Below are positions 3,707 to 48,053 of a stretch of 53,568 nt of DNA, piece after piece. Under the pieces are notes generated by a model that saw only the letters and a list, made by a program, of their open reading frames with translations, had not been told where the DNA came from and made no database searches. The stretch's first letter is position 1, and each line of letters starts with the position of its first letter. The stretch comes from a virus. Taxonomy: Duplodnaviria > Heunggongvirae > Uroviricota > Caudoviricetes. The stretch covers positions 1 through 53,568 of IMG/VR virus record IMGVR_UViG_3300048925_000677; one strand, 5' to 3'. The position numbers were made by a program, and so were the translations under genes.

Positions 3707-3954
3707 GCGACCCCGCAGAGTGGGCGGCGACCCGGGTGGTAACCCAGATGGATATCGACGACCGGATCTATTACCACCACTTGCTCGATTCCGCTCGCGA
3801 AGCCCTGGCGCCGATCCGGGACGTCCTAGACAAACTCGCCGAAGACACGGTGCCACCCTGCGACATCGTCACCCGATATGTCTTATTCGAGAAGGCGATC
3901 AGCGACCTTTCCCCGCTGGTTTACGCGACCGAGGAATTGGAGCTGGGGCCATGA
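3703..3954 (+). CDS. hypothetical protein
   Basis: VSDPAEWAATRVV...; coupled overlaps. Confidence 0.65.
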   Translation: MSDPAEWAATRVVTQMDIDDRIYYHHLLDSAREALAPIRDVLDKLAEDTVPPCDIVTRYVLFEKAISDLSPLVYATEELELGP

Positions 3955-4325
3955 GCGACCCGGAGCCGGCCGAGGATTGGCGCGTGAACGTCTATTCAAA
4001 TATCGCGGGCAACACAGTCGAGGTGATCCACATTCCAACCGGGGTCAGGGGCATCTGCGGCGAATACAAGAGCCAACTCATGAACCAGCGCGAGGCGTTT
4101 GGGCGGGCGCAGGCCCTTATCGAAAGGGGCGTAATGCCCACCCTTGCGGAACTCACTGAGCACGAACTCGACCGCCAGGAATACAACTGCGCCGTCGCGA
4201 ACGGCCTGATCATCAAGGCTCGCCGCATCAACCGAGTCATGAAGGCACGCGAACGGAAGTGGGGCCTTGACGGAATTCAGTGCCACGCCATGCTCAAGGA
4301 GGCCCAGAAGTGCGCCTATGGGTAG
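3951..4325 (+). CDS. protein with N-terminal class-I release-factor (RF-1) domain-3-like segment lacking GGQ
   Basis: DWRVNVYS..NTVEVIHIPTGVRGICGEYKSQLMNQREA matches the RF pattern D.RID...(GGQ loop)..[29 protein letters not shown]. Confidence 0.6.
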   Translation: MSDPEPAEDWRVNVYSNIAGNTVEVIHIPTGVRGICGEYKSQLMNQREAFGRAQALIERGVMPTLAELTEHELDRQEYNCAVANGLIIKARRINRVMKARERKWGLDGIQCHAMLKEAQKCAYG

Positions 4326-4579
4326 ATGACCTCCGCCCGGCCCCCGAGGGGTGGTACTGGGCGAAAACTTCGGAACACGCCATAGAGATGCTCATTCTCG
4401 GACGGTCCGACATCACTGAGATGTCCCTCGATCACGATCTCGGCGGCGATGACACCACCCGCCCCATTGTTCTGTGGATGTGCGAGAACGAATCCTGGCC
4501 CACAACAGTCCACGTCCACACAGCGAATCCCGTTGGCCGCGAATGGCTTGAAGGAATGATTGAAAGGCACAAACCATGA
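4310..4579 (+). CDS. cyclic-phosphate-processing receiver-like (cREC) domain protein
   Basis: LWVDDLRPAP, SLDHDLG, HVHTANPVG motifs; AAGGAGG SD before GTG 4310. Confidence 0.8.
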   Translation: MRLWVDDLRPAPEGWYWAKTSEHAIEMLILGRSDITEMSLDHDLGGDDTTRPIVLWMCENESWPTTVHVHTANPVGREWLEGMIERHKP

Positions 4580-4764
4580 ACTGGATACTGACAATCCGCG
4601 CGATAGCCATCCTACTGTTCGTCGCGGCGTTCGTCGCACTCTGCGCGGCCGGCAACGAGGTCGACAATCATCATCCCCAGATGGCATGGCTGGGCGTCGG
4701 TGTGTCGGCGACCCTCGCGCTGTCCGGATGCATACTGGTCGGCGTCGGGTGGGGAAGATCATGA
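4576..4764 (+). CDS. small two-TM membrane protein
   Basis: Two hydrophobic stretches, ATGA overlaps. Confidence 0.7.
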   Translation: MNWILTIRAIAILLFVAAFVALCAAGNEVDNHHPQMAWLGVGVSATLALSGCILVGVGWGRS

Positions 4765-5057
4765 GTGACCCTGTAATCCCGGCCATCGCCGCCGGTAAGC
4801 CATCGGGCGATGGTCCGCCGCCCGTGAAGCTCGGTGACGTATTCAAGCCCATTGAACGCACCAGCACCGCCGATGAGTGGAACAAGGCCCGCGACCTCCT
4901 TGGTGAGCAGGTGCGCATCATGCTCGACCTCGAAGACGAACATGCTGTGGTTGAGGGTCGACTCCTGTCTGTATGCGAGGACGGCTCCTTCGTCGTCCTC
5001 GACGACATGGGCATGAAGCACTACTGCTGGCCCCTCCTGAAAGTGGTGAAATCATGA
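4761..5057 (+). CDS. hypothetical protein, possible Sm/SH3-like beta barrel
   Basis: LLGEQVRIML..VEGRLLSV..DGSFVVLDD pattern; start reassigned to 4761. Confidence 0.6.
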   Translation: MSDPVIPAIAAGKPSGDGPPPVKLGDVFKPIERTSTADEWNKARDLLGEQVRIMLDLEDEHAVVEGRLLSVCEDGSFVVLDDMGMKHYCWPLLKVVKS

Positions 5058-5287
5058 CGCTACGCATTGCGTGCGCCGCGGCGCTGGCGCTGCTGCTCGC
5101 TGGGTGCAGCAGCAACTCGGGTGCGCCGCAGTTGTCGAACTTCGAGCGGTTCGAACAGTCCTGCAAGGACATGAAGGGCTTCGTCGTTCGGGTCGAGCCG
5201 CCAGGATGGAACGACACCGGTCGCTACGACTGCATCGTCGACGGCAAGAAGGTGTACGTCCCCGACGCGACAGAGGTGCTTCAGTGA
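5054..5287 (+). CDS. small lipoprotein
   Basis: Signal peptide with lipobox LLAG-C. Confidence 0.75.
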   Translation: MTLRIACAAALALLLAGCSSNSGAPQLSNFERFEQSCKDMKGFVVRVEPPGWNDTGRYDCIVDGKKVYVPDATEVLQ

Positions 5288-6108
5288 CCCTTCGCATCGT
5301 GACGCATCGCAATTGGTTAGCTGAGCAGTTCAAGCAGCTCTCCAATGTCCACGTCGTTCAGGACTTCGGACTCGACTTCGACCCGGCAAACCTCGACGAC
5401 TACTGGTGGGCGCCGGGCGCGTGGGTGGCGCGCGCTCACAAGTCCGGAATGCGGCTGCCGCTAATGTCCTGCGGTGTCGACTGGCTACCCAACCTCCCTG
5501 AGGCGTACCGCGGCCGGAAGGTCCAGAACAAGCTGCTCGCCGAGATCTTCCCCGGCAAGACGCAGGCCACCTTCGCCAAGCTTCCCGAGGTCAAGCACGA
5601 CGGCGTCCCAGCTAAGGTCTACGGCGAGTGCTACCTGCGAGAAACGCTGAAGCAGTACAACCTGCCGGCGGAGACCATCTGGCAATTGCAGGAGCCGGTG
5701 GAATTTGTCACCGAGGCGCGTTTTTGGATTGCCCATCGGCATATCGTGGCGTTCAGCCCATATCGCCACCGTGACTGGGTGTGGGGCGCCGAGAATCGCC
5801 CGTTCCACCCCGTTTGGGATGCGCGGATGAGCAAGATGGCCCGGTTCCTTGACGGCATGCTGAGCAATATGAGCGTGAGACTGCCGCGGGGATGCGTTAT
5901 CGACGTGGGTATTACTGACGATGGCGACGAGATGGTCATCGAGGCGAACGCCGCATGGTCCTCCGGCCCGTACGACGGCGACCCCGCCGGCATCTTCGAG
6001 GCGATCAAGGCAAGCCACGATTTCGAGGGGAAATACCCTGAGTGGGCGTGGCGACATAGTCCTGTATTTGACAACGTCGCGCCGTTGAAGATCCGCCAGC
6101 GCCTGTGA
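5284..6108 (+). CDS. ATP-grasp domain protein, R2K/DUF4343-like
   Basis: FAKLPEVKH, QLQEPVEFVTEARFWI, VIDVG..MVIEANAAWSSGPY ATP-grasp motifs. Confidence 0.8.
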   Translation: MTLRIVTHRNWLAEQFKQLSNVHVVQDFGLDFDPANLDDYWWAPGAWVARAHKSGMRLPLMSCGVDWLPNLPEAYRGRKVQNKLLAEIFPGKTQATFAKLPEVKHDGVPAKVYGECYLRETLKQYNLPAETIWQLQEPVEFVTEARFWIAHRHIVAFSPYRHRDWVWGAENRPFHPVWDARMSKMARFLDGMLSNMSVRLPRGCVIDVGITDDGDEMVIEANAAWSSGPYDGDPAGIFEAIKASHDFEGKYPEWAWRHSPVFDNVAPLKIRQRL

Positions 6109-6294
6109 GACTCATTGTCCTGGCGCCGATCTCGTGTCCCGCGTGTCGACGTAAATTGACGTCCAGGTCAGCGTCCCCATTGTCCGTGAAGTGGTGTCAA
6201 AAATGCCGACACGCCGTGTCCTATGAATCCAGTGATCGCGGTTACACGTGATGTAGATTGCGGGAACTAGTTCCTTGCCTTGGGTAATTAGTTC

Positions 6295-6323
6295 TTGACA
6301 CCCTTATTGCTTGTCCCTATGTT
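6295..6323 (+). promoter_or_regulatory. SigA-type promoter upstream of lsr2
   Basis: TTGACA (6295-6300), 17 bp, TATGTT (6318-6323). Confidence 0.75.
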
Positions 6324-6343
6324 TGTCTTACCGGACAAACATA
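6318..6343. promoter_or_regulatory. 10-bp perfect inverted repeat overlapping the -10 box (candidate operator)
   Basis: TATGTTTGTC-ttaccg-GACAAACATA. Confidence 0.55.
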
Positions 6344-6363
6344 CGAAAAGGGGATGAGCGCTC

Positions 6364-6720
6364 ATGGCCAGTCGCACAGTCACAATCATCAACGACGACC
6401 TCGATAACACCGAGGGCGCGTCCACACGTGAATTCTCCATCGGCGGCCAGGCCTACACCATCGACCTCACCGACGCCAACTACGAGAAGATGCTCAAGGC
6501 GATGTCGAAGTACGTGCAGTTCGGCCGGAAGGTCGGGCCGCGGCGAGCCGGCCGAGGGCGCGCGCATCGGATTTCGAGGGCCCCGGAGAAGAGCGCCACG
6601 ACGGCGGAGATTCGCGACTGGGCGAACAAGAATGGCCACAACGTGAAGAACCGCGGGCGTGTGCCGGATGACGTCGTCGAGGCCTTCAACTCCGCCAACA
6701 GCACGCCCGCGGAAGTCTGA
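6364..6720 (+). CDS. lsr2: Lsr2 family nucleoid-associated protein
   Basis: N-terminal DDLD..F.I.G..Y.IDL dimerisation domain; C-terminal IRDWA..NG..V..RGRV DNA-binding domain. Confidence 0.95.
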   Translation: MASRTVTIINDDLDNTEGASTREFSIGGQAYTIDLTDANYEKMLKAMSKYVQFGRKVGPRRAGRGRAHRISRAPEKSATTAEIRDWANKNGHNVKNRGRVPDDVVEAFNSANSTPAEV

Positions 6721-6723
6721 CCG

Positions 6724-6885
6724 ATGAACAGTCTTGGTAACGTCCGGCGCTTCGCGAGGCTGATCGCCGTCACGGGCGCGCTGGTCGCCAACCAGGTGTC
6801 GGGCCAGTACTTAGCACATCAACAGGGCGAAGACGTAGAGCCCCCGACCGAAGATTTAGTCGTCGGAAAGTTCTACTATCTATAG
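6724..6885 (+). CDS. small hypothetical protein (53 aa)
   Basis: ATG 3 nt after lsr2 stop; MNSLGNVRRFARLIAVTGALVANQ...; hairpin follows. Confidence 0.5.
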   Translation: MNSLGNVRRFARLIAVTGALVANQVSGQYLAHQQGEDVEPPTEDLVVGKFYYL

Positions 6886-6889
6886 ACAG

Positions 6890-6940
6890 CCACCGGATGG
6901 AGGTTGGGCTTGTGTGGCAGCAATCCCCTCCATCCGGTGG
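6890..6940 (+). terminator. long stem-loop closing the lsr2 cassette
   Basis: 14-bp perfect IR CCACCGGATGGAGG / CCTCCATCCGGTGG; no U-tract. Confidence 0.6.
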
Positions 6941-7129
6941 CCTGTATGTTATCTGAGCTTCACAGCTCTTTGCCAATCTGGCTGGTCATCAGTGTTTTGA
7001 CCTGGAAAAACCACCACTGTAATTCCTTGCTCGATGGTGCGCCCCGCGCGTAGAGGAGCCTCCGCGCACGCACACGTTGGCAAACTTATCCCACCACCGG
7101 GAGTCTCCTCCCATGCCCAGGATCAGTTC

Positions 7130-7179
7130 GTCTCACTTTTGAGACATTCCTCTCGTTTGAGAGATTTCCGTGCTACCGT
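7130..7179 (+). promoter_or_regulatory. palindromic site GTCTCA-N4-TGAGAC plus extended -10 (leaderless promoter)
   Basis: GTCTCActttTGAGAC at 7130-7145; TGc-TACCGT at 7171-7179, ATG 6 nt later; same geometry at 46791-46840. Confidence 0.6.
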
Positions 7180-7185
7180 CGAAGC

Positions 7186-7458
7186 ATGAACACGCAGCAG
7201 GACACATACGGGCGGGTCTACCTCGATGGCACCGCCGAGGCCGATGTCGAGGCCATGTCCTTGCCGGTGCGGTGCCGCTTCTGCAACGGCATTTACGACC
7301 TCGGATCGGTGACGGTTACGGGGCGGTACGTCGACTGCTCGGTATGGCAAACGCCGTGCTGCAACCGCACGGCCGACGACCGCGGCGATACGGGATGGAA
7401 GTCATTCGGCGACTACGAACATCTCGGCCGCCGGCGCGGAAGGAGTCCATTCCTGTGA
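7186..7458 (+). CDS. hypothetical Cys-rich protein
   Basis: CRFC...C...CC; probable leaderless start. Confidence 0.7.
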   Translation: MNTQQDTYGRVYLDGTAEADVEAMSLPVRCRFCNGIYDLGSVTVTGRYVDCSVWQTPCCNRTADDRGDTGWKSFGDYEHLGRRRGRSPFL

Positions 7459-7709
7459 GTAGCGGCATCAACATCAATATGTCCGCCAACTCCCCAGCGG
7501 AGATGCGGGAGTTGTTCGAGAAGTGCATGGCCGAAACGGACAAGCTGATCTATGACGGCAAGTTCGTCTACGGGCCCGGCTGTGGGCAGGTGTACGTGTT
7601 CGGCGAGAAGTGCCCGGACTGCAATGGCTTCGGCTGGATCAAAGAACTCAAGAACAAGTGCGCAACCTGCAAGGGGCGCAAGGAGGTTGGACCGGCATGG
7701 GTGATGTGA
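7455..7709 (+). CDS. DnaJ-central-type zinc-finger microprotein
   Basis: CPDCNGFG and CATCKGRK (CxxCxGxG-like) repeats. Confidence 0.7.
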   Translation: MSSGININMSANSPAEMRELFEKCMAETDKLIYDGKFVYGPGCGQVYVFGEKCPDCNGFGWIKELKNKCATCKGRKEVGPAWVM

Positions 7710-7999
7710 TGAGCGCCGACGTCTACAAGGTCGTGGAACTCCTTGGGCACGAGGAGGATTGCTATAGCCTCCGCCCAGAGCATGACTGGATGCACAGCGA
7801 GTGCACGCATGACGACTCCGGCTGCGGCGTCTGGATGACCGCGAGGCTGATCCTCACCTCAGACAACGTGAATAAGTTGCTGGCCGCGGCGTGGGAGCGC
7901 GGATTCCTAGCCTGCCAGATTCGGGTGGGTAATGAGCTGCTCAAGCTGTTACCGAATGGTGTCGACGCCTCAAATCCGTACCGGCCCAAGGTGGATTGA
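7706..7999 (+). CDS. hypothetical protein
   Basis: Coupled ORF with AGGAGG SD. Confidence 0.65.
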   Translation: MMSADVYKVVELLGHEEDCYSLRPEHDWMHSECTHDDSGCGVWMTARLILTSDNVNKLLAAAWERGFLACQIRVGNELLKLLPNGVDASNPYRPKVD

Positions 8000-8036
8000 T
8001 GGGCGTAGCAGCTAGCGGTACTCAACAGGAGTTGAA

Positions 8037-8303
8037 ATGAACCAATTAGAAGCAATGCAAGAGACACTCACCCTGGCTCACCAATACGGTATGTCCGATA
8101 TCGATGGGTTCGCCGATGGCTGCGACTACTGGCACCTGCAGGACATGGTGGAGCGTGCCGCGGCGGCGATGAATATGCCGGGCGCGGAGTTCTCGGCCGC
8201 GAAGCTGGGCCGGTGGTTGGGATGGATGCAGTGCGCTGTCGTCGCGGCCGGAATCGGACTCACGCTCGAAGATATGAAGCAGATCAATCGGCGGCACGCA
8301 TGA
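8037..8303 (+). CDS. hypothetical protein
   Basis: AGGAG SD; AKLGRWLGWMQ motif. Confidence 0.7.
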   Translation: MNQLEAMQETLTLAHQYGMSDIDGFADGCDYWHLQDMVERAAAAMNMPGAEFSAAKLGRWLGWMQCAVVAAGIGLTLEDMKQINRRHA

Positions 8304-8617
8304 CCGACCTGACCGAACGCGCCAAGGCGTCGCTAGAAGGCATCACCGAGGGGCGCTGGCGAGCCGTCAATGTCGGCAATATCCATTGGGGCGTGACCCA
8401 CGGGGAGTATAACTTCCCGACGGTTGTCAAGGCGCAGTGTGGGTACGACGGCTTCGGCAGTGGCAGCTCCCAGGTCAACGCCGAATTCATCGCCGCCGCA
8501 CCGGATCTCGTTCGGGAACTGGTCGCCGAGGTCGAGCGGCTTCGGGCGCGCGAGGAGTCCGTCGCCGAAGCCTCGTATCGGACCGGCATGCTCGACGCGG
8601 AGGGGATCCTCCGGTGA
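8300..8617 (+). CDS. Ead/Ea22-like phage protein
   Basis: TEGRW...NAEFIAAAPDLVRELVAEVERLR pattern. Confidence 0.6.
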   Translation: MTDLTERAKASLEGITEGRWRAVNVGNIHWGVTHGEYNFPTVVKAQCGYDGFGSGSSQVNAEFIAAAPDLVRELVAEVERLRAREESVAEASYRTGMLDAEGILR

Positions 8618-8811
8618 ACTTTGAATACACGGACGCCATTGGCAACGCCCTGTCTATGGATCTCCTGCGCGAGGATGATGGCACGATTTCTGGCGCCTTC
8701 GGGATCATCGACCAGCATGAAGAGTCCGAATTCGTTCGGCTCAATCAGGGCCAGCTCGCGTCCCTGCGGGACGAACTAATCAAGGCAATCGGACCTGGCG
8801 GAAGGACGTAG
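8614..8811 (+). CDS. hypothetical protein
   Basis: GTGA overlap. Confidence 0.6.
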   Translation: MNFEYTDAIGNALSMDLLREDDGTISGAFGIIDQHEESEFVRLNQGQLASLRDELIKAIGPGGRT

Positions 8812-8815
8812 GCGC

Positions 8816-8905
8816 ATGAGGTGCAACTGGTGCCGCGACACCGGCTGGGTGCCTGGTTTGATCCGCCGCCTCAAGCGGTGCCGGCACTGCGGGTACTGGC
8901 GATGA
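8816..8905 (+). CDS. 29-aa CxxC-CxxC micropeptide
   Basis: MRCNWCRDTGWVPGLIRRLKRCRHCGYWR; ATGA overlap with next gene. Confidence 0.55.
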   Translation: MRCNWCRDTGWVPGLIRRLKRCRHCGYWR

Positions 8906-9264
8906 CGCGCGCCGCGGACAACGCGGAAGAAATCATCGAGCGGTGTCTGATCCATTGGTTTCCAGACCTGCCGCCCTCGACAAGGCGAGACGTCTCAGCG
9001 TCGATCCAAGGCAATCTCGCTGCCGCCGGGTGCTCGACCGAACCGGCGAAATCCTGCGAGCAACGTTGCGCGGGTAGCGGATACGCGATGAACGAGTGCT
9101 ACACATGCCCGCGCCCCGCCCGCTGGGAGGTCGGACTATATGACTACCCGGGGTCACGCAGAAGAGCGTGCGCGCATCACGTGCATGGCTTGCTCGATGT
9201 CAAGCTTTCGGGCAAGTGGAATGACTACGTGTGTGAAGTGCGACGGCTGGCAGGCAAATCGTAA
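8902..9264 (+). CDS. hypothetical Cys/His-rich protein
   Basis: ECYTCPRPARW...ACAHH. Confidence 0.6.
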   Translation: MTRAADNAEEIIERCLIHWFPDLPPSTRRDVSASIQGNLAAAGCSTEPAKSCEQRCAGSGYAMNECYTCPRPARWEVGLYDYPGSRRRACAHHVHGLLDVKLSGKWNDYVCEVRRLAGKS

Positions 9265-9290
9265 CGCCCACTTATCGGTGAATCGAGGAG

Positions 9291-9521
9291 ATGCACATGA
9301 TGGATAGATCGACGCATTGCGATAACCGGGATCACGACAAGTGCGACGGCACAGTGACGATCTTCGACCAGGATGGCCCCAGTCGCTACGTGTGCTCGTG
9401 TAGCTGCCACAACGCCGCATTCAACGAGCGCGAATGTACAGCGTGCCGGGGCACTGGGCGCCTACACGACGTGCGCTCATCGGGTCGGCAATCAACGCAG
9501 CCCGGACCCGTTCCAGCTTGA
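9291..9521 (+). CDS. hypothetical zinc-finger microprotein
   Basis: HCD..HDKC, CSCSCH, CTACRGTG. Confidence 0.65.
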   Translation: MHMMDRSTHCDNRDHDKCDGTVTIFDQDGPSRYVCSCSCHNAAFNERECTACRGTGRLHDVRSSGRQSTQPGPVPA

Positions 9522-9587
9522 CATAAGACTGCGTTATCGCACCTGACGTAATAACTAATTATCAGCGAACTTTCACAGGAGTCACAC

Positions 9588-41651: not shown

Positions 41652-42208
41652 GCGACCGGAATCAATCGATACTGGTACAGGACGGACTCTTGCATCGGTT
41701 GCTTGGCGATACCCCAGCTACGGTCTGTGATACCAGACGCGCGCAGGGAGACATCGTCGACCTCGATGCCAGTAAGCTGACCACTGAGGCCCGTGCCGGC
41801 ACTGGCCACGGTGCGGTCAATGAGCGCCAGCACCTCCTCGCGGAAGGCCATTGCCTCGGCCGCGGCGAAGCCATGCTCCACCGTGACCACCACGCGCCCA
41901 CGCCAGAAACCGTCCTTGCGGTACAGGATTCCGGGTTCGTTGGTGTACTGCTCGATCTCGTCGACCGGAACAGTCACGCCATCTTCGGTGCACGAGGTAA
42001 TGGAATCGACCTTCAGCGTCGGGATGACGATGTAAGGCCATCCGCCGCCGTCGACCACGAAGGTGTCCGACCGGACCGGCGAAACGTGCCAGCCGCAATA
42101 CCGGCGGACCTTGTCGAGGGATGTGGCCAGTAGGCGCGCGTTCTCGACAGGGTCGATCAGCTCGGGGTTGTAGGCCACGACGTCGGCAAGTTCAAGCTCT
42201 TCAGCCAT
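41648..42208 (-). CDS. head-to-tail adaptor
   Basis: VRRYCGWHVSPV, VEHGF motifs. Confidence 0.85.
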   Translation of the reverse strand: MAEELELADVVAYNPELIDPVENARLLATSLDKVRRYCGWHVSPVRSDTFVVDGGGWPYIVIPTLKVDSITSCTEDGVTVPVDEIEQYTNEPGILYRKDGFWRGRVVVTVEHGFAAAEAMAFREEVLALIDRTVASAGTGLSGQLTGIEVDDVSLRASGITDRSWGIAKQPMQESVLYQYRLIPVA

Positions 42209-42225
42209 GACGGCCCCCCATTCGG

Positions 42226-42498
42226 TTAGTCGGTGGTTTCCTTGCGGGGACGGCCGCGGCCACGCTTGACGGGCTCTGCGGCGGTCTCCAGGGGCGGCTC
42301 GCTCACGGCGGTCTCGGTCGGTGCCGCGGCAACCTTCGTTTCCGGCGCCGGCGCGGAGACAGCCTTCTCGAAGTCCTGCAATGAAGCCCGCACCTGGCGG
42401 GCCCTATCCTCGGCGTCGACGGCCTCGTAGACCGCCAACTCCTGTAAGAGGGCCGCGCGGTAATCGGCCGCGAAGTCCCTCACGTTCTGGTCGGACAT
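42226..42498 (-). CDS. small protein with AT-hook-like C-terminus
   Basis: KRGRGRPRK; GTAGGAG SD before ATG 42498. Confidence 0.7.
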   Translation of the reverse strand: MSDQNVRDFAADYRAALLQELAVYEAVDAEDRARQVRASLQDFEKAVSAPAPETKVAAAPTETAVSEPPLETAAEPVKRGRGRPRKETTD

Positions 42499-42505
42499 GT
42501 TTCTC

Positions 42506-43201
42506 CTACCGAGGGTCACTCTCGACCCTCTCGAAATCGTTGATCATGGGGCTGTAGATGTCTTTCAGCCGCTTTCTGTCGTCAGTTCTCAGGTGCGTGC
42601 GGTGCTCCAGGCGGACATCCCACAAAGGCTCAGCGGGAAGCGCTTTCGGGCCGGCAAGGAATTCACGCTTGCCGTCGACCGGGGCGGTGACGACGAAGTG
42701 CGCCTGCTCGATCCGAATGCCGGGGATGGCGCGGAACAGGCACCGCAGCGGATGCTGGGCGTAGCTGGAGGCTTCGCGCTGCCAAAGCATCACCTCGGCG
42801 GCGTGTGCGTCAGTGGCCGCCAGTCGAGACTTGGTGTCCGCGGGTACATCGGAGATGATCTCATCGGCGTCAACCCGGAAAAACCAGTCGCCCGGCTGCG
42901 CAAACGTCATGCCGAGCTGGAACATGAAGTCCCGCTTGGCAACTTCGCCACCCCACTCGTCCCCCCACCAGACCTTGCGCGACTGATGGATGGTGCAACC
43001 GATGCCGGCGCCCGCGGCCGTGCGCAGGATCGCGTCAGCCTGGTCGGTGCCGCTCGCCGGCTGCATCATGGCACCCGGGAAGCCCGCATACGGGCCGTCA
43101 ACGGCGATGATGTGGTCGGCCAGTCGCGCGGTAGCGGCAACGCACTCGGCGAGCCAGGTGGGGCTCTCCTCGTACCAGTTCAGCAGTGCAATTATGGCCA
43201 T
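42506..43201 (-). CDS. glycosyltransferase family 2-like protein
   Basis: IALLNWYEE..WL..C, IIAVDG, WFFRVDADE (DxD). Confidence 0.8.
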   Translation of the reverse strand: MAIIALLNWYEESPTWLAECVAATARLADHIIAVDGPYAGFPGAMMQPASGTDQADAILRTAAGAGIGCTIHQSRKVWWGDEWGGEVAKRDFMFQLGMTFAQPGDWFFRVDADEIISDVPADTKSRLAATDAHAAEVMLWQREASSYAQHPLRCLFRAIPGIRIEQAHFVVTAPVDGKREFLAGPKALPAEPLWDVRLEHRTHLRTDDRKRLKDIYSPMINDFERVESDPR

Positions 43202-43419
43202 GCGGCCACCCGAAGACACACGGTCGGGAGGATGCGGGGCGGGTCGGTGAGCGTTCGTGCGTATTCGATACCGGTGATCCGGTATCTACCGCCGTCAATC
43301 TCGACGACCTCTCCAATGTTCAAAACCGCATCTTCATAGGGAAGCTGGCGAGTGTCCACCGCGGCGACGCGGCCCCGGCCGGTGATTGTGAACCAATCGT
43401 CGGCTGCTAGAAATTTCAC
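43192..43419 (-). CDS. stand-alone EF-Tu domain II-like beta-barrel protein
   Basis: DDWFTITGRGRV..LNIGEVVEIDG..ITGIEYARTLTD versus EF-Tu EDVFTITGRGTV..I.V.EEVEIVG..VTGVEMFRKLLD. Confidence 0.7.
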   Translation of the reverse strand: MKFLAADDWFTITGRGRVAAVDTRQLPYEDAVLNIGEVVEIDGGRYRITGIEYARTLTDPPRILPTVCLRVAAWP

Positions 43420-43607
43420 GCTGGCCTCACCCTCCCTACGGGTACGCACACCGTCTGGTGGGGCGCCAAACGCTCAGTGCCGCTGCCGTAGTCGGCCTCG
43501 GGGTCGATAGCCACGGTGCAACGCGCCCAGCCGTGGTCGATCCGCTCGACGTGGCCACGAAGGTCTTCGCCATCGAAGTCGACAATGACGTCGTCGCCGG
43601 GATTCAT
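43416..43607 (-). CDS. small SH3-like hypothetical protein
   Basis: PGDDVIVDFDG....GHVERI..GW pattern; ATGA overlaps. Confidence 0.65.
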   Translation of the reverse strand: MNPGDDVIVDFDGEDLRGHVERIDHGWARCTVAIDPEADYGSGTERLAPHQTVCVPVGRVRPA

Positions 43608-44827
43608 CGTCGCCCCAATCGCTTAACGGTCACGCCATCCCGATCCGGAATGACGCCGAAGGGGTCGACCACAACCGAGCCCTCGGGGAACTCCAGCGAG
43701 CGATACCGCTCATTGTTGGTGGCCAAGAAGTACACAGCCTTGTACATGTAATCCACATCGTTGACGTGCAGGAACTGCTCGCCAGACTGGCGGAGGATAT
43801 CGGCCATCAGCATTGCCGCGCTGCCGGTTTCGATGTCGGTCTCGGGCTTGAAGGCCGTTCCGAGCACGATGAGTGGCAGATCATGCTTCTCGGCGTAGTA
43901 GGAGGCGACCTCGGCGTGCCAGGCCTCATACTCCTGGCGGGCGTGCATCAGCGCGTCCCAGATGTTGAAGGACATGTCAACCTCTTCGGCGAGCCAGGAC
44001 AGCGCGATATTGTCGCGCGGGTGGCAGCCGCCACCGTCGGACATGCCGGCATCCATGTAGCGGCTCGACAGTAGCCGGCGGTCGGCGAGATCCCAGGCTG
44101 CCTTCATGTCGTCGAAATTCATGCCCATGCGCTCGCACATCTCGCCCCAGCAGTTGGCGATGACCGTCTTGGCGGTGATCCACGTGTTGTACGAGACCTT
44201 GATTCCCTCGGCCGTCGTCACGCCGGTGCGGATGCACGGGGCATCATTGATCGTGGCGTAGAACTCCTCCAGGAGATCCGCGGCCTCGTCGCTGCAGACG
44301 CCGATCAGGTTGAACTCCGGGTGTAGGTAGTCCTGCAGGACGGTGCCCATCGCGATGAACTGCGGGGTGTAGACATAGTCGACGAAATCGTTGAGTAGCG
44401 GGGCGATCTCGCGGGAGAACGTGCCGGGCAGGCAGGTGGAGATGACCGCGACAGTCTTGCGCACGCCCAGCCGCTCGCACGCCGCGGCGACGGCGGCCAC
44501 GCCCTCCTTCAGAAAGGTGTAGTCGAAATCCTCTCTGGCGTCGGGCATGATCGTGGCGCCCTCAAATTCCGGCGCGTGCGGGGTCTGGATGGCGACGAAG
44601 ATGATGTCCGAGTCGGCAACTACCTCGTCGACGGTGTCGTGCCACTGGATGTCATGATTGTCGAGCAGCGGCTGCAGCCCCTCCTCGCGGAACGGGATGA
44701 AGCGCGACTCCAGGTAAGTCTTGACGTCAGGATTGGCGTCGGTTCCGCAGACGGTGTGGCCGCGGCGTTCGATGGCTAGTGCGACCGGCAAGCCGAGCTT
44801 GCCCAGTCCGACATGACCAATTCTCAA
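43604..44827 (-). CDS. UDP-glucose/GDP-mannose dehydrogenase family protein
   Basis: GLGKLG Rossmann motif, IFVAIQTP, STCLPG, GGGCHPRD catalytic Cys, LG.AFKP.TD. Confidence 0.93.
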   Translation of the reverse strand: MRIGHVGLGKLGLPVALAIERRGHTVCGTDANPDVKTYLESRFIPFREEGLQPLLDNHDIQWHDTVDEVVADSDIIFVAIQTPHAPEFEGATIMPDAREDFDYTFLKEGVAAVAAACERLGVRKTVAVISTCLPGTFSREIAPLLNDFVDYVYTPQFIAMGTVLQDYLHPEFNLIGVCSDEAADLLEEFYATINDAPCIRTGVTTAEGIKVSYNTWITAKTVIANCWGEMCERMGMNFDDMKAAWDLADRRLLSSRYMDAGMSDGGGCHPRDNIALSWLAEEVDMSFNIWDALMHARQEYEAWHAEVASYYAEKHDLPLIVLGTAFKPETDIETGSAAMLMADILRQSGEQFLHVNDVDYMYKAVYFLATNNERYRSLEFPEGSVVVDPFGVIPDRDGVTVKRLGRR

Positions 44828-44845
44828 AGTGTTCCCCTTTGGTGG

Positions 44846-45403
44846 TTAGTCGAGTAGTGCTGCGATGTTTCGCTCGGATGTGTTGCCGCCGTTGCAGTGC
44901 ACTGCGGCAAATGCTTCAGCGAGCGCCTCTGGCGCGTTGAAATGGCCGTCCTTAAACGAGTAGCGGGCCAACTCGTCGTAGTCGACGGCGTCCGTCCATG
45001 TGAGATCGATCAGCGCGCGCGACGGTGCGTCACCGCGATTAGCGTCGAGGATGTGCGCGGCCTCGTGGTAGGTGACGAACTCCATTGGCGTGCAGGACAC
45101 GGTCCGCGGGTGGAAGTGACTCGCCTCGTCGTTGGCCATGGACTTCTCGAACGCGGCGCGATCCGCCAGAAATGTCGAGTTGAAGGTGATTACCCCACCG
45201 CCGGCCTGTGCGTAGATGTCATTGAGTGGCTCGGAGTCGATCTTGACGTCCCGCAACTCCGGGTATTTCACGGCGAGTTTGTCTATGGCGCCGTCAATCT
45301 CGGCGGAGAGCGTCGGGTCGGCGCCCTGACTGAGCTTGGTCTCGCCACATGCGGCAAGGGTGGCAACGATAACCGCGGCGGAGGCGAGATATTTGATGAG
45401 AAT
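44846..45403 (-). CDS. lipoprotein with HExxH zincin motif; apparent ATT start
   Basis: In-frame extension upstream of track start encodes ILIKYLASAAVIVATLAA-C lipobox; AGGAG SD 8 nt before ATT; YHEAAH..EALAE. Confidence 0.75.
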   Translation of the reverse strand: MLIKYLASAAVIVATLAACGETKLSQGADPTLSAEIDGAIDKLAVKYPELRDVKIDSEPLNDIYAQAGGGVITFNSTFLADRAAFEKSMANDEASHFHPRTVSCTPMEFVTYHEAAHILDANRGDAPSRALIDLTWTDAVDYDELARYSFKDGHFNAPEALAEAFAAVHCNGGNTSERNIAALLD

Positions 45404-45414
45404 GGGCTGTTCTC

Positions 45415-45960
45415 CTAGCGCCCGTATGTCAAGCTGTTCCCCGGGCTGAAGAAGTAGTGGTAGAGCGTCTGATCGATGTAATGCTCGGTCTTTGGCGAGA
45501 CCTGGTCGGCCCAGCGCTTGTCCTCCCCATAGCCGCCGTTAAAACGTCCCTGTCGGGCGATCTCGGTGCGAATCGGGTTGAGGTGGCTGACATTCCGGTA
45601 GTAACCGTTAGCGTCGTCGGACCACTCGTCGTACTCAAGCGAGTGATAGGTGGGCTTCTGGCGCGCTCCGTCGATGTAGAGCTGAAGCTGGAAGCCGATA
45701 TAGTCGACACCGTCGAGAAGCGGGTAGATGGCGTCGACGTAGTTGCCGGCGACCATGTCGTCATCGTCGATGAAGTTGAAGTACTCCCCCGAGGCGTTGT
45801 CCAGGCACCACTGCCGTTTCTCGGCGACGGTTCCCGGCATGTTGCAGGTCATCAGCTCGATGTCCGAGCGAGCCTGAATCTGTGGAGTGAGGGTGTTCAT
45901 GAGCCGGGCGTACTCGTGGCGGCGCTCAGGGACTGTGAGGACCGCTATCGTCCACTTCAC
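45415..45960 (-). CDS. glycosyltransferase family 2
   Basis: WTIAVLT, KRQWCLDNASGEYFNFIDDDD. Confidence 0.88.
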   Translation of the reverse strand: MKWTIAVLTVPERRHEYARLMNTLTPQIQARSDIELMTCNMPGTVAEKRQWCLDNASGEYFNFIDDDDMVAGNYVDAIYPLLDGVDYIGFQLQLYIDGARQKPTYHSLEYDEWSDDANGYYRNVSHLNPIRTEIARQGRFNGGYGEDKRWADQVSPKTEHYIDQTLYHYFFSPGNSLTYGR

Positions 45961-46649
45961 TGCATGACCTCCTGCAGTTTCGCCGCGGTGTCGCGAATGA
46001 GCGCCTGCACTTCGGCGCCGTAGTACAGCTCGTCCGGCCGGCACTCCTGGTGGCGGGCCAGGCGCTCGCTGGTGTTCTGATCGATCTCCGCCTTGCCCAC
46101 GATGTAGTGCATGTGCTCGGTGTAGATGTCGATCTCCAGGTGGCGGCCAATGAGTTTGGAGACGTCGTTAAGGAACGTGTCGTTGAAATCGCTGACGAAC
46201 AGCGGCGGGAAAAGGAACCCGGCGGTCTCGACCCACTTGCGATGGATGAAGCCGTGCGTCCCAAAGTTGTTGCCGTCCTGGTATCCGTCGCGCCCGAAGG
46301 CGAACAGGATCTTGTCCGGGTAGGCATCGAACGTCTCGCGCACAACGTCGTCCCAGCCGGGCGTGCGAAACACGATGTCGTCGCCGCAGTGCATGATGAT
46401 GTCCGCGCGCGACGCGTCGAAGCACAGATTCCACATCGCCGAGAGGTTCACGAGATTATCGCGCTCTCGGGGGCCACGGACCTGCACCCATTTGATGTCG
46501 ATCTGCAGGTCGTCGTATGAATGGTCATCAGAGTCGATGTACGTCACGATCCGGATGTTTTCCGGGTGCGACGCCGTGGCGTTGATGGAATCAACCAAGC
46601 GGCTCAACTGATTCGGCCGCTGGCGGGTTGGGAGGAGGAGGTCAATCAA
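45957..46649 (-). CDS. glycosyltransferase family 2-like
   Basis: LLLPTRQRP, YIDSDD, MHCGDDIVFRTPGWD, DT(F)LND; TTG start overlapping upstream stop. Confidence 0.85.
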   Translation of the reverse strand: MIDLLLPTRQRPNQLSRLVDSINATASHPENIRIVTYIDSDDHSYDDLQIDIKWVQVRGPRERDNLVNLSAMWNLCFDASRADIIMHCGDDIVFRTPGWDDVVRETFDAYPDKILFAFGRDGYQDGNNFGTHGFIHRKWVETAGFLFPPLFVSDFNDTFLNDVSKLIGRHLEIDIYTEHMHYIVGKAEIDQNTSERLARHQECRPDELYYGAEVQALIRDTAAKLQEVMQ

Positions 46650-46776
46650 GGACGGGGACCGCCTTGATGCGCATTTCAGCCTGCTCTTCAGCGGGGCGGT
46701 CAGCCATCTCCATGCAGAGGCGCTGGAAGCGCTCGGCGACGGCAACGGGCTCCCCGCGGTCGGTGAGGACATGCAT
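46642..46776 (-). CDS. 44-aa hypothetical protein
   Basis: GGAGG SD; MHVLTDRGEPVAVAERFQRLCMEMADRPAEEQAEMRIKAVPVLD; TTGATTGA coupling to GT. Confidence 0.6.
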   Translation of the reverse strand: MHVLTDRGEPVAVAERFQRLCMEMADRPAEEQAEMRIKAVPVLD

Positions 46777-46790
46777 GAAACCTCCAATTT

Positions 46791-46840
46791 GTCTCAATAG
46801 TGAGACATTTGTTGCATTGGCGAGATTCGGGACTTAGATT
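46791..46840 (+). promoter_or_regulatory. palindromic site GTCTCA-N4-TGAGAC plus SigA-type promoter for paralog cassette
   Basis: GTCTCAatagTGAGAC at 46791-46806; TTGCAT (46812-17), 17 bp, TAGATT (46835-40). Confidence 0.65.
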
Positions 46841-46874
46841 GGGGACACAGGCCACACAATCCCAGGAGATGAAC

Positions 46875-47228
46875 ATGACCGTTTTGCAGGACTTGATCGA
46901 TTCGCGCGACCTTCTGATCCGGGGTGGGTACACCGCCCACTATCTCAGGATGGACGGGCGCCACTGCGCGGTCGGCGCGGTGCTCGATGCCACCGGCAAC
47001 GAGGACATCCACGCCTTCATCTACAACACGATGAACGAGCGGGGCGCCGCGGTGATTCGTGCGCTGAATGCCACCCTCCCCGAGGATTTCCAGCCACATC
47101 TCAATTCTCAGCACCTGGGGGACATCGCGTCTCGGGTGGCTGGATACAACAACCGGAGGGGCGAGGAGGCGGTGATCGCAATGTTCAATTCCGCCATCGC
47201 CCGCGAAGAGACGCTCGTCTCGGCCTAA
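46875..47228 (+). CDS. DUF6197-like protein, paralog 1
   Basis: MTVLQDLIDSRDLL..G....HCAVGAV...YNN; AGGAG SD. Confidence 0.75.
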   Translation: MTVLQDLIDSRDLLIRGGYTAHYLRMDGRHCAVGAVLDATGNEDIHAFIYNTMNERGAAVIRALNATLPEDFQPHLNSQHLGDIASRVAGYNNRRGEEAVIAMFNSAIAREETLVSA

Positions 47229-47253
47229 CCCCAACCGCCAAAAGGAGATTCAC

Positions 47254-47652
47254 ATGACCGTTTTGCAAGATCTGATCGACAGCCGCGACCTCATCATTCG
47301 CGACGGGTGGTCGCTCGGCCGGCTGCGCGGCGCGAACGGAAGTCACTGCGCCATGGGCGCGGTGCTCGATACCACCGGCAACGAGCACATCAACCACTCG
47401 CTCGCATACGACACGATGAACGAACGCGGCCAAGCGGTGACCGCCGCGCTCTACGAGGCAATTCCCGCGGAGAAGCGGGCCTCGATCATGGCCGAATGGG
47501 GCGATGAGATCGCAGAACTCCACCCGGATTGCGTCCGAGGGTGCACCGTGGGTGACTACAACAACTACTTCGGCGAGTCGACGGTGATCGAGATGTTCAA
47601 CGTCGCTATCGCCCAGCAGCGGGCCGCCGCCTCCACTTCATACAAGCGCTGA
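47254..47652 (+). CDS. DUF6197-like protein, paralog 2
   Basis: Same motifs (HCAMGAV, YNN); AAGGAG SD. Confidence 0.75.
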   Translation: MTVLQDLIDSRDLIIRDGWSLGRLRGANGSHCAMGAVLDTTGNEHINHSLAYDTMNERGQAVTAALYEAIPAEKRASIMAEWGDEIAELHPDCVRGCTVGDYNNYFGESTVIEMFNVAIAQQRAAASTSYKR

Positions 47653-47666
47653 AGGAGATATCGAAC

Positions 47667-48053
47667 ATGACACTCTTGCAGGATCTGGTCGCCAGTCGCG
47701 ACCTACTCGTCAAGGATGGATGGGTGGCGCACAAGTTGCGCGACTCCGAAACGGGCGCGCGTTGCGCCGTCGGTGCGGTGCTCGACGCCACCGGGAATGA
47801 AGACCTCGACGCGTTCACCTACGGAGAGATGAACGAGCGCGGCGTCGCGGCGGTGGATGCCCTCTATAACCTCCTACCGGTGGGGTGGAAGGGGTATCGC
47901 GAAGCATCGTTGACCACGAAGGCGATCTGCATCGCCGACTACAACAACGGACGGGGCGAGCAGCCCACCGTTAAGCTCTTCGAGAACGCCATCGACGCCC
48001 TCGCGCCGGCAGCCGTGGGCTGCGGCGTTCGGCAAATAGGCGTGTTCCGTTGA
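47667..48053 (+). CDS. DUF6197-like protein, paralog 3
   Basis: RCAVGAV, YNN; AAGGAG SD. Confidence 0.75.
   Translation: MTLLQDLVASRDLLVKDGWVAHKLRDSETGARCAVGAVLDATGNEDLDAFTYGEMNERGVAAVDALYNLLPVGWKGYREASLTTKAICIADYNNGRGEQPTVKLFENAIDALAPAAVGCGVRQIGVFR

Follow-up and report, generated by a model that had tools for sequence, protein, structure and literature searches.

The 53,568-nt window analyzed here comprises positions 1 to 53,568 of the IMG/VR record IMGVR_UViG_3300048925_000677 and is part of an uncultured relative of the Cluster J (Omegavirus) mycobacteriophages, with a GC content of 62.6%. The record holding it is 72 kb long at an estimated completeness of 62%. DNA matches to cultured phages consist only of short stretches of the glycosyltransferase (GT) gene in Omega, MiaZeal, Courthouse, and others. 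Here, we investigated a 75-amino acid (aa) gene in the late operon, where it shares transcription with the virion genes and lies just upstream of the head-tail connector genes. We refer to it as the mini-barrel gene because its product is almost certainly, as judged from sequence profiles, a specific homologue of the domain II β-barrel of elongation factor Tu (EF-Tu). See Table 1 for the features of the locus.

The mini-barrel open reading frame (ORF) is a real gene under purifying selection. We confirmed the 75-residue translation from the GTG at 43419 on the minus strand. This start codon (43419-43417) and the TGA (43418-43416) that ends the upstream 63-aa gene share bases in a GTGA, and a Shine-Dalgarno (SD)-like GGGAGG/GAGG run lies 5–12 nt before the GTG. 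At the other end, the stop codon falls inside the downstream GT gene, giving a 10-nt overlap with the GT ATG at 43201. The translational coupling within a GT island that an earlier, sequence-only reading of this DNA had described is therefore confirmed at both ends of the gene. A longer, 85-aa form starting at 43449 was dropped, as every homologue begins at the aligned Met of the 75-aa form. No promoter-like sites were found in 42000-47200, and terminator-like sites in the same interval were no more numerous than in shuffled sequence, with none beside the mini-barrel ORF on the minus strand. Relative to a homologue with 76% identity, found on a metagenome contig of 876 bp from a close relative of the window locus (L100), the gene has a ratio of nonsynonymous to synonymous substitution rates (dN/dS) of 0.15, the same value as the adjacent GT gene. 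Its GC content at third codon positions (GC3) is 0.66, compared with 0.77–0.88 in the neighboring genes, which fits a later acquisition.

Table 1. Features of the mini-barrel locus, in window coordinates
Feature	Position	Strand	Basis or remark
Mini-barrel gene (P0002), 75 aa, stand-alone β-barrel like EF-Tu domain II	43192..43419	-	Homology, predicted fold, dN/dS
SD-like purine run (GGGAGG 43431-43436, GAGG 43425-43428)	43425..43436	-	Read from sequence
63-aa gene, phrog_1693, function not assigned in PHROGs	43416..43607	-	Upstream of mini-barrel; also precedes it in L100
GT gene, phrog_7009	42506..43201	-	Downstream of mini-barrel; homologue likewise in L100
UDP-glucose/GDP-mannose dehydrogenase-family gene	43604..44827	-	Upstream of 63-aa gene
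Three tandem paralogous genes, ~130 aa each	46800..48053	+	ORF list; begin directly upstream of GT island, opposite strand

Next, we compared the protein with EF-Tu. By BLASTP it is 40% identical to Mycobacterium EF-Tu over 62 residues (EF-Tu 213-269, E = 3e-7 for this single comparison). The sequence-only reading had aligned the 75-aa protein to EF-Tu domain II, and BLASTP reproduces its segments FTITGRG.V, N(I/V).E.VEI, and (I/V)TG(I/V)E..R.L.D in register. A single-sequence phmmer search of the PDB was marginal (E = 0.03), the best matches being the EF-Tu of M. tuberculosis (7vmx) and that of 8v9l. Significance against the PDB grew with profile depth, from E = 3.7e-5 with 4 sequences to E = 4.3e-11 with 36. 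The top ~55 matches of the 36-sequence profile were all EF-Tu domain II in one register (EF-Tu 223-300), with EF-1α next at 1e-5. An hhalign comparison of the family with host (Mycobacterium) EF-Tu domain II gave 97% probability and E = 5.7e-11, and three family members matched NCBIfam EF-Tu models at ~3e-5. Across 201 Mycobacteriaceae genomes, a count that takes in one unpublished genome with a tuf match only (G072), the family profile found tuf in 198 and almost nothing besides. In the complete chromosome of one Mycobacterium (G003) it matched tuf alone, and the Pfam domain-II model found eight domain-II-bearing ORFs there; those besides tuf we take to be EF-G and other translational GTPases.

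The general Pfam family for this domain, PF03144 (GTP_EFTU_D2, gathering cut-off 30.3 bits), gave no match for P0001 at E ≤ 1, none among the 36 family members at E ≤ 0.1, and none when the phage record was scanned in six frames at E ≤ 1. Neither Pfam nor PHROGs assigned a family to the protein or to any of the 36 members, returning only sub-threshold Phage_attach matches and one weak match to phrog_35897. By that family's own cut-off, the mini-barrel lies outside PF03144, and it is not a translation factor. The statement that it carries no GTPase domain also stands, as the ORF encodes 75 aa only and has unrelated genes on both sides.

AlphaFold2, supplied with the family alignment, predicts a closed six-strand barrel with a mean predicted local distance difference test score (pLDDT) of 96.2. 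In a Foldseek search of the PDB, the best matches are nearly all EF-Tu, with a probability of 0.9–0.98, E of ~0.1, and TM scores of 0.5–0.57. With VIA, an exhaustive structural aligner, EF-Tu chains align at a root mean square deviation of 2.4–2.5 Å over 61 residues with 30% identity. However, VIA ranks phage tail-hub and neck barrels level with translation-factor domains (Z scores of 5–6), and ESM Atlas shape searches return a mixture of gpFII, minor capsid, and SelB/EF-Tu clusters. The predicted fold is thus of the translation-factor type, and it is shared with unrelated phage barrels and not discriminating. Because the fold fits but does not discriminate, the homology claim rests on the sequence profile. 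The sequence-only reading had named a Foldseek or profile comparison with EF-Tu domain II as its check, and a predicted structure without this barrel, or a similarity short of significance, as grounds against it. EF-Tu comes top in Foldseek, the profile and hhalign similarities are significant, and the predicted structure is this barrel, which leaves neither ground against the observation.

We then counted residues over the 36 family members, using T. aquaticus numbering for EF-Tu. The mini-barrel is homologous to EF-Tu domain II (T. aquaticus ~212-311, PDB 1TTT/1B23; Mycobacterium 7VMX) in the same register. The two have in common the ITGRG turn, a G-(I/V)-E-x-x-R hairpin, the VGL strand, and hydrophobic residues of the A76 pocket. 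EF-Tu domain II sits within a translational GTPase, whereas the phage protein is free-standing, corresponds approximately to EF-Tu residues 220-294, and has relatives that are all 67–127 aa long. The G domain (domain I), domain III, and the last domain-II strand with Arg300, a 5'-phosphate contact in EF-Tu, are absent. The phage family also has invariants of its own that are missing from EF-Tu, namely Trp9, Asp42-Gly43, Tyr46, and Pro60-Pro61.

In EF-Tu, the pocket that receives the tRNA 3' end is made up of Ile231, Val237, Leu289, and Glu271, and the aminoacyl pocket is lined by Glu226, Asp227, Phe229, Thr239, and Asn285, with His67 of domain I (PMC4329189). Arg263 of E. coli EF-Tu, the equivalent of Arg274, pairs with the 5'-phosphate of A76 (PMC5737660). 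The GRG turn between strands a2 and b2 is well kept in the phage family (Gly14 in 34/36 members, Arg15 in 31/36, and Gly16 in 36/36). Glu52 (= Glu271) occurs in 34 of the 36, the remaining two having Asp, and Arg55 (= Arg274) occurs in 21/36. Asp8 (= Asp227) is present in 26/36, Phe/Tyr10 (= Phe229) in 28/36, Ile/Val12 (= Ile231) in 35/36, and Val/Ile18 (= Val237) in 31/36. Taken together, these six residues from the domain-II half of the acceptor-end pocket (Asp227, Phe229, Ile231, Val237, Glu271, and Arg274) are retained in 58–97% of members. Among the eight domain-II paralogues of G003, the ITGRG turn and the G-V-E-x-x-R hairpin are present in EF-Tu only. Since the other domain II barrels of this one Mycobacterium genome lack both, the fold does not require the two motifs, and finding them kept in the phage family suggests that a ligand face has been preserved.

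To place the protein in a family, we searched 1.84 billion cluster representatives exhaustively and obtained 38 matches, about 35 of which are proteins of 67–127 residues that align end to end. The long, multi-stretch matches P0027 (an SPP1_Dit-like tail protein) and P0028 (a PKD/Ig repeat protein) were set aside as repeat noise, as were P0022 and P0041. The 30 members that we looked up all come from metagenome, metagenome-assembled genome, or unnamed-assembly records, and the few that are named are called "hypothetical protein." A tblastn search with the 85-aa form found no match in 50,697 cultured-phage records. Searching viral and genome collections with a 4-sequence alignment found nothing, and a 10-sequence alignment found two true metagenome loci, L106 and L107. 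The latter search also brought up four loci in the viral collection (L108-L111) that are full-length EF-Tu genes and not family members. These encode EF-Tu of ~396–400 aa on IMG/VR contigs filed as viral, the L110 frame being cut by the contig end, and represent either host contamination or a phage-carried tuf. The family is rare, known only from metagenomes, and, apart from one weak PHROG match, absent from Pfam and PHROGs.

No fused relatives of 224–2000 aa were found, which is weak evidence; the range of 132–223 aa lay outside the search. Several members carry extensions: Cys-rich segments at the N-terminus of P0007 and P0010 and at the C-terminus of P0008 resemble zinc ribbons fused to the barrel, and P0009 and P0035 have other C-terminal extensions. 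Additionally, residues 1-67 of the AlphaFold DB cluster A0A7Y5DFI6 (250 aa, "PNKP phosphatase domain-containing") match the barrel at E = 2e-4 and 25% identity. This barrel-PNKP fusion is only a candidate, and the results of two ESM Atlas shape searches do not include it; a true fusion would tie the barrel to RNA 3'-end healing.

The gene contexts of the members are diverse, as are their hosts, which range from 26% to 66% GC. In a mycobacterial prophage (L001-L004), the barrel is flanked by an integrase plus DUF2510 gene on one side and by the end of the tail/lysis operon on the other. Two members (L005, L008) occur in small early-gene arrays with HNH, DUF4326, and HTH genes, and in a 26%-GC phage (L009) a D12 methyltransferase adjoins. 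Elsewhere the neighborhood includes Ku and an AcrVA2-like gene (L102); Macro, NADAR, and a sigma factor on a 192-kb contig (L103); or DnaB, LexA, and WhiB genes (L105). In L104, HAD_PNKP lies at 2 kb and the RNA-repair nucleotidyltransferase RlaP at 3.3 kb, and in L106 the barrel is found two genes after RlaP. On a 221-kb contig (L107, 1855-6630), an AAA_21 (AbiEii-type) ATPase and a Tex-like protein stand beside the member, a setting that is possibly a defense island rather than a phage. One further member (L097) belongs to a mycobacterial chromosome, where it lies in an islet of low GC3 that also holds IS3 and HNH genes. An all-against-all comparison of neighbors showed no conserved partner, as only the barrel gene itself recurs. 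In phages and prophages, the barrel gene behaves as a mobile accessory module consisting of one gene.

We favor the reading that the mini-barrel binds the tRNA 3' end, or another adenylate-type ligand, through the retained pocket, and we put its probability at roughly 0.35. The protein itself is a truncated, free-standing EF-Tu domain II without the G domain, domain III, and the last strand. Under this reading, its working face would combine the GRG turn (a2-b2), the Glu271/Arg274 hairpin, and the Ile231/Val237 pocket, in the way that domain II grips aminoacyl-tRNA (aa-tRNA) by its acceptor end. Its ligand would be the 3'-terminal adenosine-5'-phosphate of tRNA or possibly another adenylate-type ligand, and during infection tRNA 3' ends could be masked or handed over. 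One example would be a shield against host factors that attack the CCA end and are prominent in mycobacteria, such as the MenT nucleotidyltransferases and the toxSAS/CapRel pyrophosphokinases. The EF-Tu-specific homology and the conservation of the pocket residues argue for this reading, and the RlaP genes near the barrel in L106 and L104, together with HAD_PNKP in L104, give a hint from context. Furthermore, the literature describes toxins that act on the CCA end, both in mycobacteria and among anti-phage effectors (PMC7450476, PMC10435456, PMC11162799, 10.1101/2021.04.30.441581, PMC9712102).

The closest precedent for such an activity is archaeal. To our knowledge, among single-domain EF-Tu barrel proteins only the archaeal Pbp11 has been studied. 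Like the mini-barrel, Pbp11 of the Thermococcales (Q9UZY3, PDB 7ANU; PMC9540759) is a small stand-alone protein (~11 kDa), and its barrel can be superposed on that of EF-Tu domain II. It keeps the Glu259 equivalent and binds tRNA in vitro, shifting it in gel assays (PMC9540759), which means that tRNA binding is possible for a domain II-like barrel on its own. Unlike the phage protein, Pbp11 is archaeal, chromosomal, and a partner of the proteasome (PAN), and it retains the Arg288 equivalent, which is gone from the phage protein. To bind tRNA, Pbp11 requires a flexible, basic N-terminal tail (PMC9540759), which is absent from the phage protein. We detected no relation in sequence between the two: the Pbp11 family model NCBIfam NF041207 matched none of the 36 members at E ≤ 0.01, and 7ANU was not among the 60 PDB profile matches listed.

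Several observations weigh against binding of the tRNA 3' end. High affinity of EF-Tu for aa-tRNA requires domain I (His67 and the 5'-phosphate contacts), Arg300, and domain III, and all of these further affinity elements are missing in the mini-barrel. Even within domain II, the equivalents of His273, Asn285, and Thr239 vary among the members. The family is neutral to acidic, with a median net charge of -1 and a pI of 6.2, and it has no basic tail, the barrel of the window protein beginning at residue 2. Retention of the motifs could also partly reflect detection and alignment, as the same segments are the best conserved in EF-Tu domain II. As for context, the RNA-repair neighbors come from possibly related phages and are not adjacent to the barrel, and neither RlaP nor HAD_PNKP is found in the 72-kb, 62%-complete record of this phage. 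Finally, a tRNA role does not account for the two arrangements, described below, in which the barrel gene is sandwiched by GT genes.

A second reading, which we regard as possible though doubtful, is that the mini-barrel acts as a decoy or competitor, drawing off proteins whose docking site is EF-Tu domain II. It could soak up a defense or toxin component that uses EF-Tu as target or cofactor, or a phage capsid segment whose trigger complex with EF-Tu would thereby be averted. Lit/Gol has EF-Tu as a cofactor. EF-Tu plays this part also in the complex that anti-phage Avs7 forms with the major capsid protein (PMC13728456), and the window gene shares a transcript with virion genes. The toxin CdiA-CT(NC101) docks exclusively on EF-Tu domain 2, burying ~1000 Å2 through Glu260, Phe262, Arg263, and Asp267 (PMC5737660), and its docking hairpin is the one best conserved in the phage family. 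As this toxin binds domain 2 only, an isolated domain II could offer a complete binding site for a protein. A decoy would also fit the charge of the family, which resembles that of EF-Tu domain II, and the members that share accessory arrays with AcrVA2-like, Macro, or NADAR genes or have a prophage integrase as neighbor. However, identity to host EF-Tu domain II is low for a mimic, at 30–40% (for the window protein, the ~40% given above). The family-specific invariants are common to members across the whole range of host GC contents, which indicates that the family evolves as its own lineage and does not track the EF-Tu surface of one host. Furthermore, no partner was identified, and the literature searched gives no EF-Tu-directed defense in mycobacteria.

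It is also conceivable, but in our view unlikely, that the barrel has been recruited beyond EF-Tu ligands altogether, as a generic interaction module or as a virion or neck part like phage λ's gpFII, with the motifs persisting only as inherited fold determinants. The gpFII-type head-tail joining proteins (PF05354) are likewise small phage β-barrels of similar size (TM ~0.66 in shape searches), structure searches match phage tail-hub, stopper, and head-tail attachment barrels equally well, and the position of the window gene next to the head-tail connector genes would suit such a role. Weak, sub-threshold matches to Pfam Phage_attach occur in 6/36 members (best E = 0.001), and one member matches NCBIfam tail_join_FII at E = 0.002. 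The profiles, however, point only to EF-Tu, at E = 1e-11, and gpFII-type matches stay under every cut-off; PF05354 gives no match for P0002 and reaches 6 of the 36 members only at E ≥ 0.001. The loci of most members are not virion modules; the barrel genes there keep company with early or accessory genes or adjoin a prophage integrase. Glu52 is kept in nearly all members, although it is dispensable for the fold in seven paralogous domain II barrels.

The GT genes suggest a third alternative, distinctly unlikely on balance, in which the mini-barrel is a GT accessory, that is, a small adaptor or chaperone that, for example, presents the acceptor or binds the nucleotide part of the donor. The coupled order of 63-aa gene, mini-barrel, and GT, with overlapping ends, is found in both the window and L100. 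A 39%-identical member on an unrelated 62-kb, 32%-GC viral contig (L101) lies between GTs of 565 aa and 773 aa, again with overlapping stop and start codons, and these GTs have no detectable similarity to those of the window. This second sandwich lends some unexpected support to the proposal of the sequence-only reading that the protein serves the neighboring GTs. The L101 cassette of GT, mini-barrel, and GT (3735-9540) is preceded by an OrfB_IS605/Cas12f-like TnpB gene. Two independent GT-adjacent cases among ~13 contexts would be expected by chance a few times in 100, on the rough assumption that GTs make up ~1% of phage genes.

On the other side, the remaining ~11 contexts have no GT within 4–6 kb, and no GT recurs with the mini-barrel among the compared neighbors. 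The downstream GT has 213 homologues, most of which, such as those of Cluster J phages, have no adjacent mini-barrel; this absence was seen at least in the Cluster J homologues that we inspected, and the cultured-phage collection holds no mini-barrel. Late-operon GT islands are, moreover, known variable slots. The Cluster J glycosylation island has a variable slot between its last GT and the zinc-finger protease, at 5885-6351 in MiaZeal (L011). The corresponding slot in the window (43192-44827) holds the dehydrogenase, phrog_1693, and mini-barrel genes in place of the two small, unrelated genes gp19 and gp20 of MiaZeal. A complex prediction of the mini-barrel with the downstream GT scored 0.00, which counts neither way.

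The idea that the frame is no gene at all, but a chance ORF or a decaying piece of a captured tuf, is effectively refuted: the low GC3 and the lack of a Pfam or PHROG family would suit it, but the dN/dS equal to that of the neighboring GT, at least 35 diverged small homologues of the same length and start, the SD-like site and operon coupling, and the confident predicted fold all speak against it.

Other relatives and analogues help to place the family. A 91-aa GTP_EFTU_D2 protein encoded in a mycobacterial chromosome (L098:7977-8252, G001 contig 15) is a stand-alone domain II in the host clade. It aligns to the phage family by hhalign at 96.7% probability and E = 3e-10, with IDG and GIE motifs in common. 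Unlike the phage family, it passes PF03144 (54.6 bits), keeps the last strand, and has RNRG in place of TGRG. A syntenic copy in a second species (L099 ~8000-8218, G002) has the same LysE-like and short-chain dehydrogenase flanks. Given the shared motifs, the 91-aa protein could stand midway in evolution between tuf and the phage mini-barrel. Another phage-encoded fragment of a host elongation factor is gp247 of Caulobacter phage Colossus, which is a truncated EF-Ts and a proposed translation modulator (PMC3556154), but it derives from another factor, has another fold, and is one gene of one phage, not a family. Pbp11 and the 91-aa protein are known cases of a domain II-like protein that stands alone, and the phage-carried, truncated, EF-Tu-specific family is distinct from them; in the literature searched, we found no description of such a family.

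Returning to the favored binding of the tRNA 3' end, a more specific form of it would have the minimal barrels cap the 3'-terminal adenosine of tRNA, or of phage tRNA-like RNAs, and so guard it against CCA-directed defense toxins. We consider this form quite improbable. The toxins concerned would be MenT/AbiEii-type nucleotidyltransferases, toxSAS/CapRel pyrophosphokinases, and CdiA-like tRNases. If true, capping would represent a new anti-defense class that shields the substrate instead of inhibiting the enzyme. In broader terms, the Glu/Arg pocket could have been retained as a portable site for binding adenylates, which would also explain the placement of the barrel beside GTs, Macro/NADAR genes, and RNA-repair enzymes.

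Conflicts between phages and hosts converge repeatedly on EF-Tu, as seen with Lit/Gol, Avs7, contact-dependent inhibition toxins, and the Qβ replicase. If the function of the mini-barrel is merely structural or tied to the GTs, the gain would be a modest one in annotation. If tRNA-end shielding or a decoy function is true, the family would be of high interest. The mini-barrel, being small and easily expressed with clear point mutants (G14, E52, and R55), offers a handle on the possible manipulation of tRNA ends by phages or on possible decoys of EF-Tu-dependent immunity in mycobacteria.

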